From the NCBI GenBank assembly GCA_963745835.1, contig CAVUZH010000003.1:1024001-1088000 (forward strand): a stretch of DNA of 64,000 nt, in the 5' to 3' direction. The DNA comes from an uncultured delta proteobacterium (GTDB lineage: Bacteria > Desulfobacterota > Binatia > UBA9968). Position 1 is the first letter of the stretch. The number at the start of each line of letters is the position of its first letter. Below are positions 31,031 through 46,363 of this stretch, in pieces. Position numbers and translations under genes: made by a program. The notes below the pieces were generated by a model that saw only the letters and a list, made by a program, of their open reading frames with translations, did no database searches and had not been told where the DNA came from.

Positions 31031-31108
<78 letters not shown>

Positions 31109-31112
31109 GTAC

Positions 31113-31188
31113 TGGTGAGCCGTGCTGGATTCGAACCAGCGACCCTCTGCTTAAAAGGCAGATGCTCTACCGCCTGAGCTAACGGCTC
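31113..31188 (-). tRNA. tRNA-Lys(TTT)
   Basis: GAGCCGTTAGCTCAG...CTGCCTTTTAAGCAG...GGTTCGAATCCAGCACGGCTCACCA. Confidence 0.96.
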
Positions 31189-31679: not shown

Positions 31680-31753
31680 GCCCCCGTAGCTCAGTAGGAT
31701 AGAGCACAGGATTCCTAATCCTGGGGCCGTGAGTTCGAATCTCGCCGGGGGCA
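31680..31753 (+). tRNA. tRNA-Arg(CCT), CCA not encoded
   Basis: GCCCCCGTAGCTCAGTAGGATAGAGCA-CAGGATTCCTAATCCTG-...GAGTTCGAATCTCGCCGGGGGCA. Confidence 0.95.
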
Positions 31754-39359: not shown

Positions 39360-40127
39360 ATGAAAGTTTCTAGCGCAGAGTTTGTTAAAGAGATTCAGCA
39401 GATGGTGCGTAAAAAACATTCAAAGGATCACCCCATTATCCGCATGATCGAGGAAGGAAAATTAGATCACGAGCAGCTTAAAGGATTTGTTGGTCAGTTC
39501 TATCTGTTTTTTCCAAAACCTTTTCCTAAGCCTATAGCCGCCATGCTCAGCCGCTGTCCAGACGACCCGGAACTCGAAAAGATGTGGATCGAAAACGTTG
39601 TCGAAGAAGGAACGGGGGAGATCACCGGCACGGACAGTCACAAGGGACTCTTCATTCAATTTGCTCAATCGTGCGGCTTTACCAAAGAAGAGTTAGACAA
39701 GGTAGAGCCGCTTCCGGAAAGCCAAGCCTTCCTTGATTGGCGCGAGCTTTTAATGTACCAGCGCAGCTGGCTGGAGTTGTATGCGTGCCAGGGTTTTTGC
39801 CTCGAAGGTACGGCAAACGAACGCATGACAAAGATTGTCAATGGACTTACAAAGCATTATGGATTCACGCGGGATTCTGAAACTATTCGGTACTGGACCC
39901 TCCATATGGGTGTTGATGAAGAACATATGAAAGTCGGGCCGTTGGCTGTGGAGAGGTATGCGATTACTGAACCTCAGCAGGCCCAGGTGCGGAGCTCAGT
40001 GCAAAAGACTCTGGATCAGTTCTGGCTTGCTTTTGATGGAATCAAACGCGCGTTCGTCGATAAAGATGACATTTACGCCAAGTGGAGAAATTCAGACAGC
40101 AATCAACATCAAAATAGAAGGGGATGA
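39360..40127 (+). CDS. Heme-oxygenase-like diiron protein (CADD/PqqC/TenA superfamily)
   Basis: ENVVEE...DSH, LEG and YWTLHMGVDEEH give the E/H/E/H/D/H metal ligand set typical of CADD-type enzymes. Confidence 0.82.
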   Translation: MKVSSAEFVKEIQQMVRKKHSKDHPIIRMIEEGKLDHEQLKGFVGQFYLFFPKPFPKPIAAMLSRCPDDPELEKMWIENVVEEGTGEITGTDSHKGLFIQFAQSCGFTKEELDKVEPLPESQAFLDWRELLMYQRSWLELYACQGFCLEGTANERMTKIVNGLTKHYGFTRDSETIRYWTLHMGVDEEHMKVGPLAVERYAITEPQQAQVRSSVQKTLDQFWLAFDGIKRAFVDKDDIYAKWRNSDSNQHQNRRG

Positions 40128-40130
40128 TTC

Positions 40131-40784
40131 ATGGAGATGGTTGATCTTTCGCGAATTATTTACGACGGTATGCCCAAAATCCCGGCTCTGCCGGATGTTC
40201 ATGTGCAGAAGTTTTTTAGTCTCGAAAAGGGCCATCCTTTGAATGTGACGGAGCTGTCGTTGCCATGTCATGCCGGCACTCACGTTGACGCGCCAATTCA
40301 TATAGTGCCAAACGGCAAGTCAATAGAAGAACTTCCGCTGGATTCTTTTGTCGGCAACGGAACGATCATCGCTGTACGAAAGAACGGCGGAGAAGAAGTA
40401 ACCGCAAAGGATCTCCAAGCGTCAGGTGTTGAGGTGAAGCAGGACGATATCGTGATGCTCTATACCGGGTGGGACGAGAAGTTCGATAGTCCTGATTATA
40501 ATCTTCATCCTTATCTCTCGGTAGATGCCGCCAACTGGATGGTTGAGAAGAAGATAAAGATGTTTGGGATCGACTGCATCACCGTTGACCTGCCGACACC
40601 GCTTAGACCCAAAGGATTTGATTTCCCCGTGCACAAAGCTCTTCTGAGTAACAACATCTTAATCGCCGAGAATGTGACAAATCTTGGACCTATCGTTGGC
40701 AAGAGGTGCCGAATCCTGGCCTTTCCTCTTCGGATCAGAGGCAGCGATGCGGGACATGCTCGAATCGTCGCCGAATTAAGTTAG
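40131..40784 (+). CDS. Cyclase family metal-dependent hydrolase (kynurenine formamidase-like)
   Basis: DLS, HAGTHVDAPIH, LYTGW, GID, VHKALL, ENV motifs. Confidence 0.92.
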   Translation: MEMVDLSRIIYDGMPKIPALPDVHVQKFFSLEKGHPLNVTELSLPCHAGTHVDAPIHIVPNGKSIEELPLDSFVGNGTIIAVRKNGGEEVTAKDLQASGVEVKQDDIVMLYTGWDEKFDSPDYNLHPYLSVDAANWMVEKKIKMFGIDCITVDLPTPLRPKGFDFPVHKALLSNNILIAENVTNLGPIVGKRCRILAFPLRIRGSDAGHARIVAELS

Positions 40785-40800
40785 CGATAAGTAAAACCAT

Positions 40801-41769
40801 ATGGCTTCACCGCAAATTATCAAAGGGATTATCGGCGCTTGTCTGACGCCGTTCGACGATAACGATCATATAGATTATGCGGCGTTAGAGAAGGAAATGG
40901 ATTTTCTTCTTGGCGATTGTGACGCCGTAACAATTGCCGCTGTGGAAGCCGCCGAGTACACCATGCTCAGCCGCGAAGAGCGAAAAGAGCTTCTAAAAGT
41001 CGGCACGCAGATGGTCAACAAGCGCGTGCCGGTAATCATTGGCTGTTCCAGTCCGTCACCTCGGGAAGTAATCGACCTGGCCGAGTATGCAGCCACGATT
41101 GGCGGCGATTTTGTTCAAGTGCTGATGCCGCTCCGCCCGTGGGGAGGTCAACCGACCATAGCGGAGTTGATGGAATTTTATACACAAGTCGCATCGACAA
41201 GTCCCTTGCCGGTGGTTTGTTATCATAATCCTGGACCGGGCGCCGATCCGCCACAGGATGCGTTCGTCAAGATCAGCGAAATTGACAACATCCGATATTT
41301 CAAGGAAAGCTCGAGAGATATCACGAAGATCTCCAGATTGATTGAACAGATCGAACTTGCTGGTCGGGGTCATTACTTCACCACCATGCAGCCACTGCTA
41401 GTCACTTTGATGCTCGGCGGCTCCGGCGCCACTATGCCTCCACCTGGAACCCGCATCGGGGCGCAAATTGTGAAAGCGTTTCGAGCAAACGATCTTGAAA
41501 GCGCTCGGTTTTGGGCGCGCTGCTACGCATTATTTCCCGGAAAATGGGCCGCTTACGGTTTGCCGCCGGTGATGAAATCTGCCATGAAACACTTCGGCGT
41601 GGATATCGGCAATCCTTCACGGCCCTATGCTCCGGTGAGCCCCCGCGATCATGCCCAAATCGGCCAGTTTCTCCGCCAGGTTGGGTTAATTGGTGAAGCC
41701 CCACCGAATCCGAAAGCTTTGATAGACGCCGCTAATTTCCTTGCTCAGGAAGATACCTTTCTCCGTTAG
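40801..41769 (+). CDS. DapA/NAL-family class I aldolase (divergent)
   Basis: LTPFD, RVPVIIG, YHNP, FKESS (Schiff-base Lys); GxxGE replaced by AVEAAE. Confidence 0.85.
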   Translation: MASPQIIKGIIGACLTPFDDNDHIDYAALEKEMDFLLGDCDAVTIAAVEAAEYTMLSREERKELLKVGTQMVNKRVPVIIGCSSPSPREVIDLAEYAATIGGDFVQVLMPLRPWGGQPTIAELMEFYTQVASTSPLPVVCYHNPGPGADPPQDAFVKISEIDNIRYFKESSRDITKISRLIEQIELAGRGHYFTTMQPLLVTLMLGGSGATMPPPGTRIGAQIVKAFRANDLESARFWARCYALFPGKWAAYGLPPVMKSAMKHFGVDIGNPSRPYAPVSPRDHAQIGQFLRQVGLIGEAPPNPKALIDAANFLAQEDTFLR

Positions 41770-41837: not shown

Positions 41838-42041
41838 ATGGAATGGATTAAAGATCTTTCCGATAAACTGGTTATTTGGTTTCTCCGCAAAACTTCCTCG
41901 TTCGGTAAAGAGCTTACCGGCGCAGGTCGAGCAGAGCAGCTCCTGTGGCGAGAGCAGCGCTTGCGGAATCTAAAAGGTCTCGCAATGCGCTACCAGCAAC
42001 GCCACGGTGAAAAAAAACTTCGGAATAGGTTTCCAGTCTAA
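41838..42041 (+). CDS. Small basic hypothetical protein
   Basis: GGAG RBS; its stop overlaps the next start (TAATG). Confidence 0.5.
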   Translation: MEWIKDLSDKLVIWFLRKTSSFGKELTGAGRAEQLLWREQRLRNLKGLAMRYQQRHGEKKLRNRFPV

Positions 42042-43198
42042 TGCGTCGATTCAATGGGCGAAAACAAATTGTGATATTGGGCGGCGGGTGTGGCGGTGTG
42101 GTTGCCGCGACTCAGCTCGGCAGGAAATTAGGCGCCGACCATGATATTATTCTCATTGACCGCCGCGCTGATCACGTCTTTATGCCCGCATTTCTGTTCC
42201 TGATGACCGGCGACCGACAGCCGCAAGAGATTTGTCGTAGCCTCAGTGCGCTGAAGAAGCGCAACGTTAAAGTGATTCAATCCGAAATTCTCGACATCGA
42301 TCCTGTAGCTCAAAAGGTCAACCTTCCCAAAGAAAAGATCAATTACGACTATTTGATTGTTTCCTTAGGGTTGCAGACAAGACCGGACTTGGTGAGCGGC
42401 TTTAGTGAAGCCTCGCTCCATCCTTGGGAAATGGAATCGGCTCTCAGGCTTCGGCATGCGCTGTCTGAGTTTCGCGGTGGAAGGGTCGTCGTCGGTGTGC
42501 CTTTGGGGCCATACCGCTGCCCGCCAGCGCCGTACGAGGCGCAGTGGATGTTGGACGGCTATTTTAGCCAGCGCGGTATTCGCGATCGTGTACAGATAGA
42601 TTATTTTACCCGGGACCCTGAGCCGGCCGGCGAAGCCCACGATCCGGTAGTTTGGATGGATGCCGAAAGTAGAAGGCGCAAAATTGATATCCACTACGAC
42701 TTTGTCGTGCGCTCCATTGATCCGGTGAAGAGACAAATTAATGGACTCTATAACTATAATCTTCCCTACGATCTTTTGGTGATGGTTCCGCCGCACCGTC
42801 CCGCGCAAGTTCTCCTCGACTGTGGATTGGCAGAAGCCGAAACTGGTATACGAGTAGACTACGAGACGCTGCAAACGAAATGGGAAAACGTCTTTGCGAT
42901 CGGCGATTGCGCCGATATGCCGGCTTCGAAAGCGGGAGGTGTTGCCCACCAAGAAGCTGACGTGTTGGCGCACAATTTAGCTGTAGAAATCACGGGAAAG
43001 GGAAGACCGGTAGATCTCTGGCTGCATACAATATGACTGCTTGCCTTCGGCGCTGGACGCGCCGCTGCTAATAGAACAACTTACCCCACTGGATGGCCGC
43101 CTTACGGGGTCACCTATCCCCGAACATGGGGACCCAATCGACTGATTTATTGGGCTAAAATTGGCTTTGAAAAATGGTGGTTGTGGCGATACTTCTAA
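42041..43198 (+). CDS. Sulfide:quinone oxidoreductase/FCSD-family flavoprotein, predicted selenoprotein (UGA at 43034-43036)
   Basis: GGGCGG, YRCPPAPYE, VPPH, AIGD, KAG motifs. The frame continues past TGA as U-LLAFGAG...WAKIGFEKWWLWRYF-TAA, the typical SQR C-terminus. Confidence 0.85.
43048..43064 (+). promoter_or_regulatory. Putative bacterial SECIS element
   Basis: CGGCGC-TGGAC-GCGCCG: perfect 6-bp stem with a G-containing loop, separated from the UGA by 11 nt. Confidence 0.75.
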
Positions 43199-43724: not shown

Positions 43725-44420
43725 CTATTTAACGGCTGGGTCCGGCTGAGTCTTGGCTTGCATTTCAGCAACTTGCAGCATGAGACGTGCGGCAATTGGT
43801 GAGTTAGGGTTTTCTTTGATGTACTGCTGATATGCAACAATGGCAGATTTGTTGTCACCGACAACCGTATAACACCGTGCCTTTCCAAGCACGGCGGATT
43901 CTTTCAGAGCTCCGGTAATCCGTTCAGCTTCGGTATAGTGCTGAATTGCGCCGGCGCATTGGTTTTTCAGTTCTTGTATGTGTCCAAGGGTCATCAAACC
44001 TATCTGTCGATAAACGGAGTTCTGATCGGTGGAAGCGATGAAACGCTGGGCCGCGGCGGCCGCTTTGTCCAGATCGTTTGTAGCTAGATGACTGTTGGCC
44101 TCGTAGAGATGCGCCAGAGCGGCATAATGAGACCAACGATACTCTTCGACTTTTTCAAATTCCAGAATGGCTTCGTTGTGTTTATTGGCGCGAAAAAACG
44201 TGATCGCCCTATCGAAATGCTGGGCTGCTTCCTGGTTTTGGCGGCTCTTATAAACCTGCCAAAGCGAAATCCCGATGATCACTGCCATGATCAAAGCACC
44301 AGCTATAATAAAAAGCCGACGTTTTTGTTGAACGAAACTCAAGGCCCGCTGGGTGAACAGCACGAAGTTGTCGGGTTGCCGGAGTTCCTTACGTGAAAAG
44401 TGCTTAGCGCTGGTCGCCAT
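43725..44420 (-). CDS. TPR-containing single-TM protein (YfgM-like)
   Basis: RKELRQPD-F N-terminus, TM helix, TPR-like helices. Confidence 0.75.
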   Translation of the reverse strand: MATSAKHFSRKELRQPDNFVLFTQRALSFVQQKRRLFIIAGALIMAVIIGISLWQVYKSRQNQEAAQHFDRAITFFRANKHNEAILEFEKVEEYRWSHYAALAHLYEANSHLATNDLDKAAAAAQRFIASTDQNSVYRQIGLMTLGHIQELKNQCAGAIQHYTEAERITGALKESAVLGKARCYTVVGDNKSAIVAYQQYIKENPNSPIAARLMLQVAEMQAKTQPDPAVK

Positions 44421-44477
44421 AGCTTCTGATCTGCGTCGAAGGGAAAAGATTGACTGTCACAGGCAGGTTAAGAGCTT

Positions 44478-45005
44478 CTACATCTTGTATTTGAAATCAT
44501 CGGGCGTCATCTTCTCTAAGATCTCTGCCCACTTTTCTTGGGAGACGTTTGAGACGTTTTCGACCGGAGGTTCCTTCCCTTCTTCGTTCTGTTGAAGAAT
44601 GCTGGAGGCTTCGAGAACTGCCTTGGCGACGAAAATCGGGCTTTTGGTGCGCAGAGCTAACGCGATCGCATCGCTGGGACGGGAGTCGATAACCACCTGA
44701 CGGCCTGAAATGTTTAAATACACCAACGCAAAGTAGGTATTTTCCTTAAGATCAGTGATTTCGATAGAGTCAACCGCGCAACCGACTTCGCCGAGAATAT
44801 TTTTGATCAGGTCATGAGTCATTGGCCGGGCCATCTTGATTCCTTCGATTTCCGTCGCCATGGCTGTGGCCTCCAGTAAACCGATCCAGATGGGCAGATT
44901 CAGTTTGTTATCGGTGTCTTTTAAAATGACAATGGGAGTTTTGGTCACTGGGTCGAGTGTTAGCCCACCCACGGACATCTGTATTGCGTCATCCCGTTTT
45001 GTCAT
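44478..45005 (-). CDS. Bifunctional nuclease family (DUF151)
   Basis: LPIWIG..EA, RPMTHDL, DSRPSDAIALALR motifs. Confidence 0.93.
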   Translation of the reverse strand: MTKRDDAIQMSVGGLTLDPVTKTPIVILKDTDNKLNLPIWIGLLEATAMATEIEGIKMARPMTHDLIKNILGEVGCAVDSIEITDLKENTYFALVYLNISGRQVVIDSRPSDAIALALRTKSPIFVAKAVLEASSILQQNEEGKEPPVENVSNVSQEKWAEILEKMTPDDFKYKM

Positions 45006-46363
45006 ACCATTTCCCCCTGCGCTTGGATTTCTGAAGCTGCTTCTTCAATGGTGAGTTCTCCGATCAACGAGTTAACAGTTGCAGCGATGATCCGTGCGTT
45101 TACCATCTCGCCGATCAGATTCCCACGCCCTACAATGTTAACGATTCGATTGCTTCGCGTGCGTCCCATTACTTGCGCTCTATTGCGCGAATGGCCGTCA
45201 ATCAATACTTCTTCGATCCGTCCGATTTTTTGCTTGTTTTTTCTTAAAGAAATTTCCTGCTGAACATTCTGCACTTGCTTCAGCCGCTCTTTCTTCTTTT
45301 CTTCTAGGACGTCGTCGTTGTAAAGCTTTGCCGATACAGTCTGGATGCGCGGCGAGTACATGAACGAGTAAATCTCATCATACTCCACTTGACTCAGCAA
45401 TTCTAGGGTTCTTTCAAAATCGTCATCGGTTTCGCCCGGAAATCCGACAATGATGTCCGTGCTCAAGGCCACTTCAGGGGAACGTTGTCGCAAGCGATCA
45501 ATACGACCGAGATACTCACTGCGCGTATAACCGCGACGCATTCTCACGAGCACGCTATCGGAACCGGATTGAACAGGCAAATGAAGATGTTCGCAAACTT
45601 TACCCAGAGTAGCGTAGGCCTCGATCAGGTCCTCCGACAAATCTTGCGGGTGAGAAGTTGTAAATCGAATCCGTGAAAGTCCTTCAACTGCATCAACGCG
45701 CTGAAGAAGTTCCGCAAAGTGGATTTCCCCGGCAGATGTCTTACCATAAGAGTTCACGTTCTGACCAAGCAGCATCACTTCTTTGACGCCCTGAGTAGTC
45801 AGTGATTTAATTTCGGCGATAATTTTTTCGCTCGGCCGGCTCACTTCGCGACCACGAACGTGCGGAACGATGCAGAAGCTGCATACTTTATTGCAACCCT
45901 GCATGATGGTAACGAACGCTTTTGCGCCATGTACGTGAGTCCTGCCGTCGGGATCTTCCATGTAGGAAGGATCCCGGTAAAAAGCGATTTCGACTGGACG
46001 GGCGTGAGCCGACTCTACTTGTTCGATCATCTCGGGTAGCTTGTGGATATTGTGGGTGCCGAAAACGAGATCTAAATGAGCAATGCGCTTGAGAAGCCGG
46101 TCTCCTTCTTGTTGAGCAACGCAACCGCCGACTCCTATAATGAGATCTGATTTCTGCTGTTTGATTTCACGCCAGCTCCCGAGGGCGCTGTAAACCTTTT
46201 GCTCCGCCTTATCGCGCACGCTGCAGGTATTTAATAGAAGCAAATCCGCATTTGCGGGTTCGTCGGTCAGCATGTAATTTGCCCGGCCCATGACCTGCGC
46301 GATCCGTTCTGAATCATATTGATTCATCTGGCAACCGTAGGTCTGGATATACATTTTCTTCAT
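45002..46363 (-). CDS. miaB: tRNA-2-methylthio-N6-dimethylallyladenosine synthase
   Basis: TYGCQMN, NTCSVR, GCVAQ, CNKVCSFC, FTTSHP, TRAM domain. Confidence 0.97.
   Translation of the reverse strand: MKKMYIQTYGCQMNQYDSERIAQVMGRANYMLTDEPANADLLLLNTCSVRDKAEQKVYSALGSWREIKQQKSDLIIGVGGCVAQQEGDRLLKRIAHLDLVFGTHNIHKLPEMIEQVESAHARPVEIAFYRDPSYMEDPDGRTHVHGAKAFVTIMQGCNKVCSFCIVPHVRGREVSRPSEKIIAEIKSLTTQGVKEVMLLGQNVNSYGKTSAGEIHFAELLQRVDAVEGLSRIRFTTSHPQDLSEDLIEAYATLGKVCEHLHLPVQSGSDSVLVRMRRGYTRSEYLGRIDRLRQRSPEVALSTDIIVGFPGETDDDFERTLELLSQVEYDEIYSFMYSPRIQTVSAKLYNDDVLEEKKKERLKQVQNVQQEISLRKNKQKIGRIEEVLIDGHSRNRAQVMGRTRSNRIVNIVGRGNLIGEMVNARIIAATVNSLIGELTIEEAASEIQAQGEMV

Follow-up and report, generated by a model that had tools for sequence, protein, structure and literature searches.

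Sulfide:quinone oxidoreductases (SQRs) and flavocytochrome c sulfide dehydrogenases (FCSDs) have a common fold, a two-residue redox centre, flavin adenine dinucleotide (FAD) motifs and a C-terminal membrane helix. Those with solved structures, including human SQOR (8dhk, 6oi5), the SQRs of Aquifex aeolicus (3hyv) and Acidithiobacillus ferrooxidans (3t2z, 3sz0) and FCSD (1fcd, 5n1t), all use cysteine (Cys) at the second redox position. According to the title of a structure entry, crystals of the A. ferrooxidans enzyme have been obtained with selenide, and human SQOR is reported, in the abstract of a preprint, to oxidise selenide (bioRxiv 10.1101/2023.04.13.535674). A form with selenocysteine (Sec) at the second position has also been catalogued: NF049943 (SQR_III_seleno), the 'type III SQR, selenoprotein subtype' with motif HxxU, was reported in 2025 and is traced to deep-Sep (PMC12013277); Table 1 of a 2026 catalogue (PMC13188914), which covers 119 families and subfamilies, has no other SQR-like entry. 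Here, we describe a gene at positions 42041-43198 of a 64,000-nucleotide stretch of contig CAVUZH010000003.1 (assembly GCA_963745835.1) from an uncultured delta proteobacterium of the Binatia, referred to as the window, which very probably encodes another Sec-containing SQR-like flavoprotein, and we compare it and its closest relatives (the window clade) with the known enzymes.

The open reading frame (ORF) called at this locus lies on the forward strand (42041..43036), encodes 331 amino acids ending in LWLHTI and is closed by a TGA at 43034-43036. Past this codon, exactly 53 further codons (43037-43195) can be read in the same frame before a TAA at 43196-43198. An initial annotation of the window, made from its letters alone, had pointed out this layout and had proposed that the TGA encodes Sec at the second catalytic Cys of an SQR/FCSD-type enzyme, that a selenocysteine insertion sequence (SECIS)-like hairpin follows and that standard annotation truncates the gene. 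The frame is as it described, and the truncation is borne out among the relatives: in a collection of 5.8 billion proteins, 119 of the 120 best relatives are stubs of 327-334 amino acids (78-92% identity, 84-86% query coverage) which end where the window ORF ends and which have been deposited under names such as generic oxidoreductase or SQR. The one full-length cluster among these 120, P0006, has Cys at the site. When residues 322-385 alone were used as a query against the same collection, P0006, a Cys form with five members (MET0500883.1), was the sole match, and a metagenome scan for DNA of this Cys form, meant to show whether its hairpin has been lost, returned TGA forms only, at no more than 76% identity to P0006.

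At the DNA level the TGA is almost perfectly conserved. Among 160 related loci, 80 from species-representative genomes and 80 from metagenomes, 159 carry TGA at the homologous codon and the remaining one (L105) stops short of the site. The gene was found in 38 of 41 genomes from the window's order, a count that includes two unpublished genomes, G217 and G223 (36 of 39 without both), and all matches long enough to include the site contain exactly one TGA. A sequencing error, which the initial annotation had named as a possible explanation, is ruled out by the presence of the same TGA across the related loci and in independent contigs: the codon is unchanged in contigs from three independent DNA studies and in one contig from an RNA library (42919-43084). 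A few relatives have an additional in-frame TAG or frameshifts beside the TGA (L108, L111, codon 88 of L075, and G217). In L108 and L111 the frameshifts lie elsewhere in the gene and the TGA is still present; these irregularities may be assembly errors in long-read metagenome-assembled genomes (MAGs), or may mark decaying copies.

The 53 codons downstream of the TGA evolve as coding sequence. Across 147 unique sequences, the entropies at first, second and third codon positions are 0.30/0.21/1.19 for tail codons 333-385 and 0.50/0.28/1.36 for codons 7-331, and mean pairwise amino-acid identity is 0.862 in the tail vs 0.773 in the rest of the protein. The tail is thus under stronger purifying selection than the remainder of the gene. 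Its stop codon lies 53 codons past the TGA in 153 of the examined loci, and two of its residues, G337 and K373, are near-invariant in the superfamily alignment.

Comparison with homologs places the TGA at the second redox position of the family. In an alignment with homologs of 360-500 amino acids (125 rows), the column of Cys160 holds Cys in 113 rows; in the column of residue 332, where four rows had C substituted for Sec, Cys is found in 104 of the 121 others. Position 332 (as Cys) and G14, G16 and G19 of the dinucleotide-binding motif are near-invariant in alignment A1. Human SQOR is the best match among solved structures for the 385-residue read-through protein (E 2.8e-33), and in this alignment Cys160 pairs with the Cys of 'pvkCagapqe' and residue 332 with the Cys of 'ytsCplvtg'. 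The latter we take to be Cys379, the residue which presumably forms the charge-transfer species with FAD and passes electrons to the flavin. The mapping of Sec332 rests on this alignment and on that of the family; with the C-terminal 85 residues alone as query, where a residue-level alignment to the A. ferrooxidans SQR was sought, no SQR chain was matched. Both redox positions named in the initial annotation, the first within its CPxAxYE motif (here CPPAPYE, with Cys160) and the second at the TGA, are in this way supported.

The predicted structure is likewise that of an SQR. The 331-residue part matches Pyr_redox_2 (PF07992) and FCSD_central (PF21706) in Pfam, and the tail alone has no Pfam match. 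An AlphaFold2 model of the read-through protein, built on a 78-sequence alignment, has a pLDDT of 93 and a pTM of 0.92; in its tail, core strands are predicted within residues 329-347 and 359-366 and a terminal helix at residues 367-384, with pLDDT values of 71-96 over ten-residue blocks. Foldseek aligns the model to the human, Aquifex and Acidithiobacillus SQRs and to FCSD with TM scores of 0.81-0.85 at 19-27% identity, and the family profile matches SQR chains end to end. Because of the modelled strands and helix, the Foldseek alignments and the end-to-end profile match, the read-through tail is predicted to be part of the fold. The confidently predicted helix at residues 367-384 is rich in Trp, Phe and Tyr and is a candidate monotopic membrane anchor as in SQRs. 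A 331-residue product would be without the second redox residue, G337, K373 and the C-terminal helix, since all of these lie at or after the TGA. The residue that follows Sec332 is Leu333; the corresponding residue is Phe in many Cys relatives, Pro in human SQOR and Met in members of NF049943. We equate this position with Phe357 of the A. ferrooxidans SQR, on the basis of entry titles that name Cys356 and of our own reading. In published work the residue after the redox Cys is described as a quinone-stacking aromatic, Phe357 in A. ferrooxidans and Phe337 in C. maquilingensis (PMC9666304).

Directly downstream of the TGA, after a spacer of 11 nt (43037-43047), the RNA is predicted by ViennaRNA to fold into a hairpin with a 6-bp stem and a 5-nt loop. 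This is the 17-nt element CGGCGC-UGGAC-GCGCCG of the initial annotation, found at 43048-43064; numbered from the T of the TGA, its stem pairs positions 15-20 with 26-31, and the loop has G at its second position, followed by another G. Evidence for selection on the RNA comes from synonymous sites. Of the four codon third positions that lie in the stem, three, in GGC of Gly337, CGC of Arg340 and GCC of Ala341, are four-fold degenerate. Among the 128 four-fold sites with a conserved amino acid, these three have the lowest entropies: 0.06 bits at codon 340, 0.14 bits at codon 337 and 0.38 bits at codon 341. The next lowest value in the gene, outside the stem sites, is 0.75 bits, the two loop codons, 338 and 339, have values of 1.57 and 1.60 bits, and the median of all 128 sites over the whole gene is 1.6 bits. 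Where any of these three stem sites varies, it does so only to T, which preserves a G-U pair. The chance that three named sites would be the lowest three of 128 is about 3 in a million, a figure that is indicative only, as the sequences are related. This synonymous-site constraint shows that the hairpin is under selection as RNA.

The hairpin also has the geometry expected of a bacterial SECIS (bSECIS). The consensus limits, taken from the Fig. 2 legend of the 2026 catalogue (PMC13188914), are a loop of 3-9 nt, a stem of 4-16 bp, a G within the first two loop positions, a distance from UGA to loop of 16-37 nt and a minimum free energy (MFE) of at most -7.5 kcal/mol. All of the 147 variants (147/147) satisfy these constraints, with a 5-nt loop NGGNC, a 6-bp stem and a spacing of 17 nt; the MFE ranges from -8.3 to -11.9 kcal/mol and is -10.6 kcal/mol for the window. 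Like the E. coli fdhF-type SECIS and the bSECIS model, the element stands in the coding region directly after the UGA and has a 5-nt loop on a 6-bp upper stem, and in these respects it lies within the consensus limits. The SECIS-like assignment of the initial annotation is therefore upheld. A longer structure, with a possible lower helix of 2 bp beneath the hairpin, was rejected, since positions 12 and 33 are able to pair in only 49 of the 147 sequences and this helix shows no covariation.

The genome is equipped to make selenoproteins, a condition on which the initial annotation had made its proposal depend. It comprises 7.28 Mb in 25 contigs, with the gene described here on a contig of 1.45 Mb. 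The genes selA (520.7 bits), selB (394.3 bits) and selD (383.4 bits), all above their cut-offs, are in a row on contig 22, and tRNA-Sec with anticodon TCA is found on contig 13 (74.2 bits), so that all four components looked for (selA, selB, selD and tRNA-Sec) are present. Since selD of the same genome has its own in-frame TGA (motif U-A-A-K), the genome has one or more further selenoprotein genes; what follows the TGA of selD is a different small stem-loop, with no obvious motif shared with the hairpin of the gene described here. SelA was found in each of five other genomes with the gene, and in three of these the gene and selA share a single chromosome.

The closest described system is NF049943. 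The window protein belongs to the same superfamily and fold, has Sec at the same HxxU site (HTIU in the window, HATU in L028 and L030, true members of NF049943 found in two genomes from the window's phylum), its first Cys in CPxAP and a hairpin just downstream of the Sec codon. Its best family match is a type III SQR model. By score it is not a member of NF049943, reaching 256.5 bits against a cut-off of 525, whereas L028 and L030 score 664.7 and 663.7 bits. The two groups have 30% identity in alignment A1 and differ in length (385 aa for the window protein, 425 aa in NF049943), in the sequence of the hairpin and its distance from the UGA, and in gene neighbourhood; in addition, a small partner protein encoded upstream, described below, belongs to the window clade. 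In a representative library, a gap sets the window clade apart, with identities of at least 56% within it and of at most 38% to everything else. A maximum-likelihood tree of 83 proteins recovers the window clade, including its one Cys form, with an SH-aLRT support of 100% and a long stem branch (0.85). The NF049943 members are nested in a 28-row clade (99% support) whose other 26 rows are database-called proteins, and the rows nearest to them (P0175, P0159, P0195) have Cys at the site. Cys forms thus stand between the two Sec groups in the tree; an approximately unbiased (AU) test rejects a single clade for both (p 0.0115, log-likelihood difference 83.5), and at least three changes of state at the site are required. 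These sequence comparisons point to the window clade as a second, separately derived Sec lineage of SQR-like enzymes, outside NF049943.

The groups that branch next to the window clade, at a fork which the tree does not resolve, include Cys-type type III SQR-like proteins of Crenarchaeota (cluster of P0168; Desulfurococcales/Acidilobaceae MAGs), which are also 385 amino acids long and have the same architecture; they and the other Cys homologs differ from the window clade in having Cys for Sec and are 30-38% identical to it. In contrast to FCSD, of which an adjacent cytochrome subunit gene is a feature, the window gene has none beside it: a cytochrome c subunit gene was sought among its neighbours and no cytochrome family matched. 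No paper on the window clade was found in the literature searched; the supplementary tables of deep-Sep lay outside that search and may list TGA homologs. The clade is also absent from the table of the 2026 catalogue (PMC13188914). To the question of whether such a Sec family had been described, which the initial annotation had left standing, the answer is therefore divided: the Sec-containing, HxxU-type SQR-like kind is already known, as the catalogued type III subtype, and the window clade belongs neither to that model nor to its branch.

Features of the locus and of related loci. Positions are those of the window unless a locus or contig is named.
Feature	Position	Strand	Basis or remark
Predicted complete selenoprotein gene, 385-residue SQR-like flavoprotein, Sec = residue 332, stop TAA 43196-98	42041..43198	+	Frame, Pfam, AF2 (AlphaFold2), Foldseek
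Dinucleotide-binding motif GGGCGG, N-terminal, residues 14-19	42080..42097	+	Sequence; Pyr_redox_2 match
TGC codon of Cys160, first redox cysteine, within CPPAPYE	42518..42520	+	Homolog and human SQOR alignments
In-frame TGA, probably read as Sec332, motif H-T-I-U	43034..43036	+	Conservation in loci; Cys in homologs
SECIS-like hairpin, stem 43048-53 with 43059-64, loop NGGNC 43054-58	43048..43064	+	Folding, synonymous-site entropy
53-codon read-through tail: predicted three beta strands and C-terminal aromatic amphipathic helix (367-384 = 43139-43192)	43037..43195	+	AF2, entropies
Conserved small protein, 67 aa, TAA 42039-41 overlapping the ATG of the Sec gene	41838..42041	+	Motif in loci, fusions
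Dihydrodipicolinate synthase (DHDPS)-family (class I aldolase-like) gene, most constant upstream neighbour	40801..41769	+	PF00701; homolog upstream in 77/80 genome loci
Putative cyclase / arylformamidase-like gene	40131..40784	+	PF04199; TIGR03035 86.8 bits, cut-off 223; homolog in 63/80 loci
Heme-oxygenase-like 'iron-containing redox enzyme' (CADD/PqqC/TenA-like) gene	39360..40127	+	PF14518, PF03070; TIGR04305 86.6 bits, cut-off 200; 62/80 loci
selA-selB-selD cluster	G000 contig C22:65710-70161		Loci L001, L003, L011
NF049943 members	L028:1501-2775, L030:1507-2781		Sec in HATU; hairpin type GAGAAGG-GGUC-CCUUCUC
Natural fusions of small protein and flavoprotein	L109:3815-5143, L115:3710-5095		Single open frame

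Immediately upstream, the Sec gene and the DHDPS-like gene are separated by a seeming 'gap' of about 270 nt, which in fact codes for a conserved small protein of about 60-67 amino acids. A simple pattern finds its motif in 130 of 157 loci, nine residues do not vary in a set of 46 diverse sequences, and in some lineages there is an additional hydrophobic (transmembrane) helix at the N-terminus; it has no Pfam family and no Atlas match. In Acidobacteriota-labelled loci (L109, L112, L113 and L115) the two proteins are encoded as one in-frame fusion, with the small protein on the N-terminal side of the flavoprotein and the TGA kept. Because of these fusions, there is good sequence evidence that the small protein and the flavoprotein act together.

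None of the three genes further upstream (DHDPS-like, cyclase-like and iron-enzyme-like) reaches its NCBIfam cut-off. Their median identity across loci is 79-84%, so that they are at least as conserved as the Sec gene. The Acidobacteriota-labelled loci keep the DHDPS-like gene and are without the cyclase-like and iron-enzyme genes. Downstream, on the opposite strand (43725-46363, -), lie genes for a TPR_21 protein and a bifunctional-nuclease-domain protein and a further gene, which we take to be MiaB-like; 45-50 genome loci out of 80 have these in synteny. As the synteny extends to such housekeeping genes (MiaB, bifunctional nuclease), the conservation of the neighbourhood may in part reflect genome relatedness rather than function. 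Elsewhere in the window, Rfam recognises three ordinary tRNA genes (31034-31188, -; 31680-31753, +).

On the evidence of sequence and models, we have little doubt that 42041-43198 is a genuine Sec-decoded gene of the SQR-like flavoprotein family, and that the enzyme is specifically a sulfide:quinone oxidoreductase we hold at about even odds. Several observations weigh against one or the other of these conclusions. The evidence for selenium in the protein is indirect throughout, from sequence and models; the RNA-library contig may stem from DNA in the library and is no proof of transcription, and the genome bin has an estimated contamination of 9.33%. As for the hairpin, the 86-nt region is no more stable than shuffled sequences (z -0.03; 89 of 200 shuffles at least as stable), and because shuffles fold equally well its significance is not shown by thermodynamics alone. 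No Rfam family was found for it, either in the whole window at the gathering threshold or in 43000-43130 at E <= 10. The G-G of the loop is forced by a Gly codon, and the bases opposite the constrained third positions of the stem are dictated by Gly, Ala or Arg codons, so that classical compensatory covariation is impossible. Of the pattern that the initial annotation had looked to in relatives, a conserved TGA and hairpin with compensatory changes, the first part is thus found and the compensatory changes are not demonstrable; the case for selection on the RNA therefore rests on synonymous-site constraint. With respect to function, two points cast doubt on SQR activity: Leu333 stands at the putative quinone-stacking site where many Cys relatives have Phe, and the conserved neighbours (aldolase-, cyclase- and diiron-oxidase-like) are not sulfur-oxidation genes.

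These last two points bear on the alternative that survives best, namely that the gene encodes a genuine selenoprotein which is not an SQR, and that the Sec/Cys flavoprotein and its small partner oxidise or reduce a sulfur-, selenium- or other small-molecule intermediate made by the neighbouring enzymes. In keeping with this, most loci preserve the order heme-oxygenase-like diiron oxidase (HDO), cyclase, DHDPS, small ORF and Sec gene (62, 63 and 77 of 80 have homologs of the first three), and its DHDPS, small ORF and Sec gene persist in the Acidobacteriota-labelled loci; all of the neighbours fall under curated family cut-offs, the residue after the redox position is Leu in place of the Phe of many relatives, and the long stem branch separates the clade from its Cys relatives. 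Against it, the protein is SQR-like in its fold, at its two redox positions, in its FAD motifs and in its C-terminal amphipathic helix, the best family match is a type III SQR model, and, with housekeeping genes included in the flanking synteny, conservation of the neighbourhood may partly be ancestry. We regard this alternative as possible and, on balance, somewhat unlikely.

Much less room is left for a read-through of the UGA with Trp, Cys or Gly, by near-cognate or other recoding, in which the hairpin would merely slow termination. That selenium is here a prediction from sequence speaks for it, as does the base after the UGA: 135 of 137 unique sequences have C there, and termination at UGA-C is leaky. 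However, the Sec machinery is complete in this genome, whose selD gene also contains a TGA, and SelA accompanies the gene in all five of the other carriers. In its spacing, loop and stem the hairpin agrees with the SelB-type consensus, the site corresponds to a redox Cys, a residue whose usual substitute is Sec, and the sister family NF049943 is already annotated with Sec at the same position; we consider such recoding very improbable. Finally, that the TGA is a true stop, with a 331-residue product and 53 downstream codons that are a decaying remnant or non-coding, is hardly credible: gene callers and depositors do treat it so (119 of the 120 best relatives), and the hairpin is unexceptional against shuffles, but the tail is better conserved as protein than the gene body with variation mostly at third positions, ends at the same distance from the TGA in 153 loci, contains the superfamily-invariant G337 and K373 and is modelled to fold into the core sheet and a terminal helix, and the shorter product would be without the second redox residue.

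If the gene is decoded with Sec, SelB carrying Sec-tRNA(Sec) would bind the hairpin and Sec would be inserted at the UGA. Sec332 and Cys160 would then form a redox pair, as a selenenyl-sulfide or in a bridged form, beside the FAD, with the selenolate acting as nucleophile and leaving group in the oxidation of sulfide, persulfide or a related substrate, and FAD would hand the electrons on to a membrane quinone. The aromatic helix at the C-terminus, encoded past the UGA, may anchor the enzyme on the membrane. The enzyme probably works with the upstream protein of about 60 amino acids, which appears to be translationally coupled to it here and is fused to it, or bears a transmembrane helix, in other lineages. 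SQR-type oxidation of sulfide or selenide would be the default reading of this chemistry. More speculatively, and with less confidence, the protein could be an obligately selenium-dependent membrane flavoenzyme of independent origin, near-universal in a soil order, that acts with its new partner of about 60 amino acids and an aldolase-like enzyme in an undescribed pathway and not in ordinary sulfide detoxification; in such a pathway the cyclase-like and diiron-oxidase-like enzymes would join in most lineages, and the partner would be part of a complex or a fusion.

For annotation, the consequence is that a gene present in 38 of 41 sampled genomes of the order, and in 160 genome or metagenome loci, has been deposited as a 331-residue stub without its second catalytic residue and its membrane helix. 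As the exception model NF049943 misses the clade, a second NCBIfam model or a lower cut-off would be needed. For the family, the same catalytic Cys of the SQR fold has apparently been replaced by Sec at least twice, and in the window clade the Cys form is almost absent, with one cluster against hundreds. This near-absence speaks for a genuine benefit of selenium at the flavin-adjacent position, and two independent changes from Cys to Sec at a flavin-proximal site would, if true, point to a specific catalytic advantage of selenium. The features that make the clade of interest are its independent origin, its near-exclusive use of Sec and its new small partner protein. This partner, a protein of its own in most lineages and part of a fusion in others, may offer a lead to the anchoring or regulation of the enzyme, and the conserved aldolase-like neighbour a lead to its substrate. 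The soil lineages that carry the gene would depend on selenium for this enzyme.

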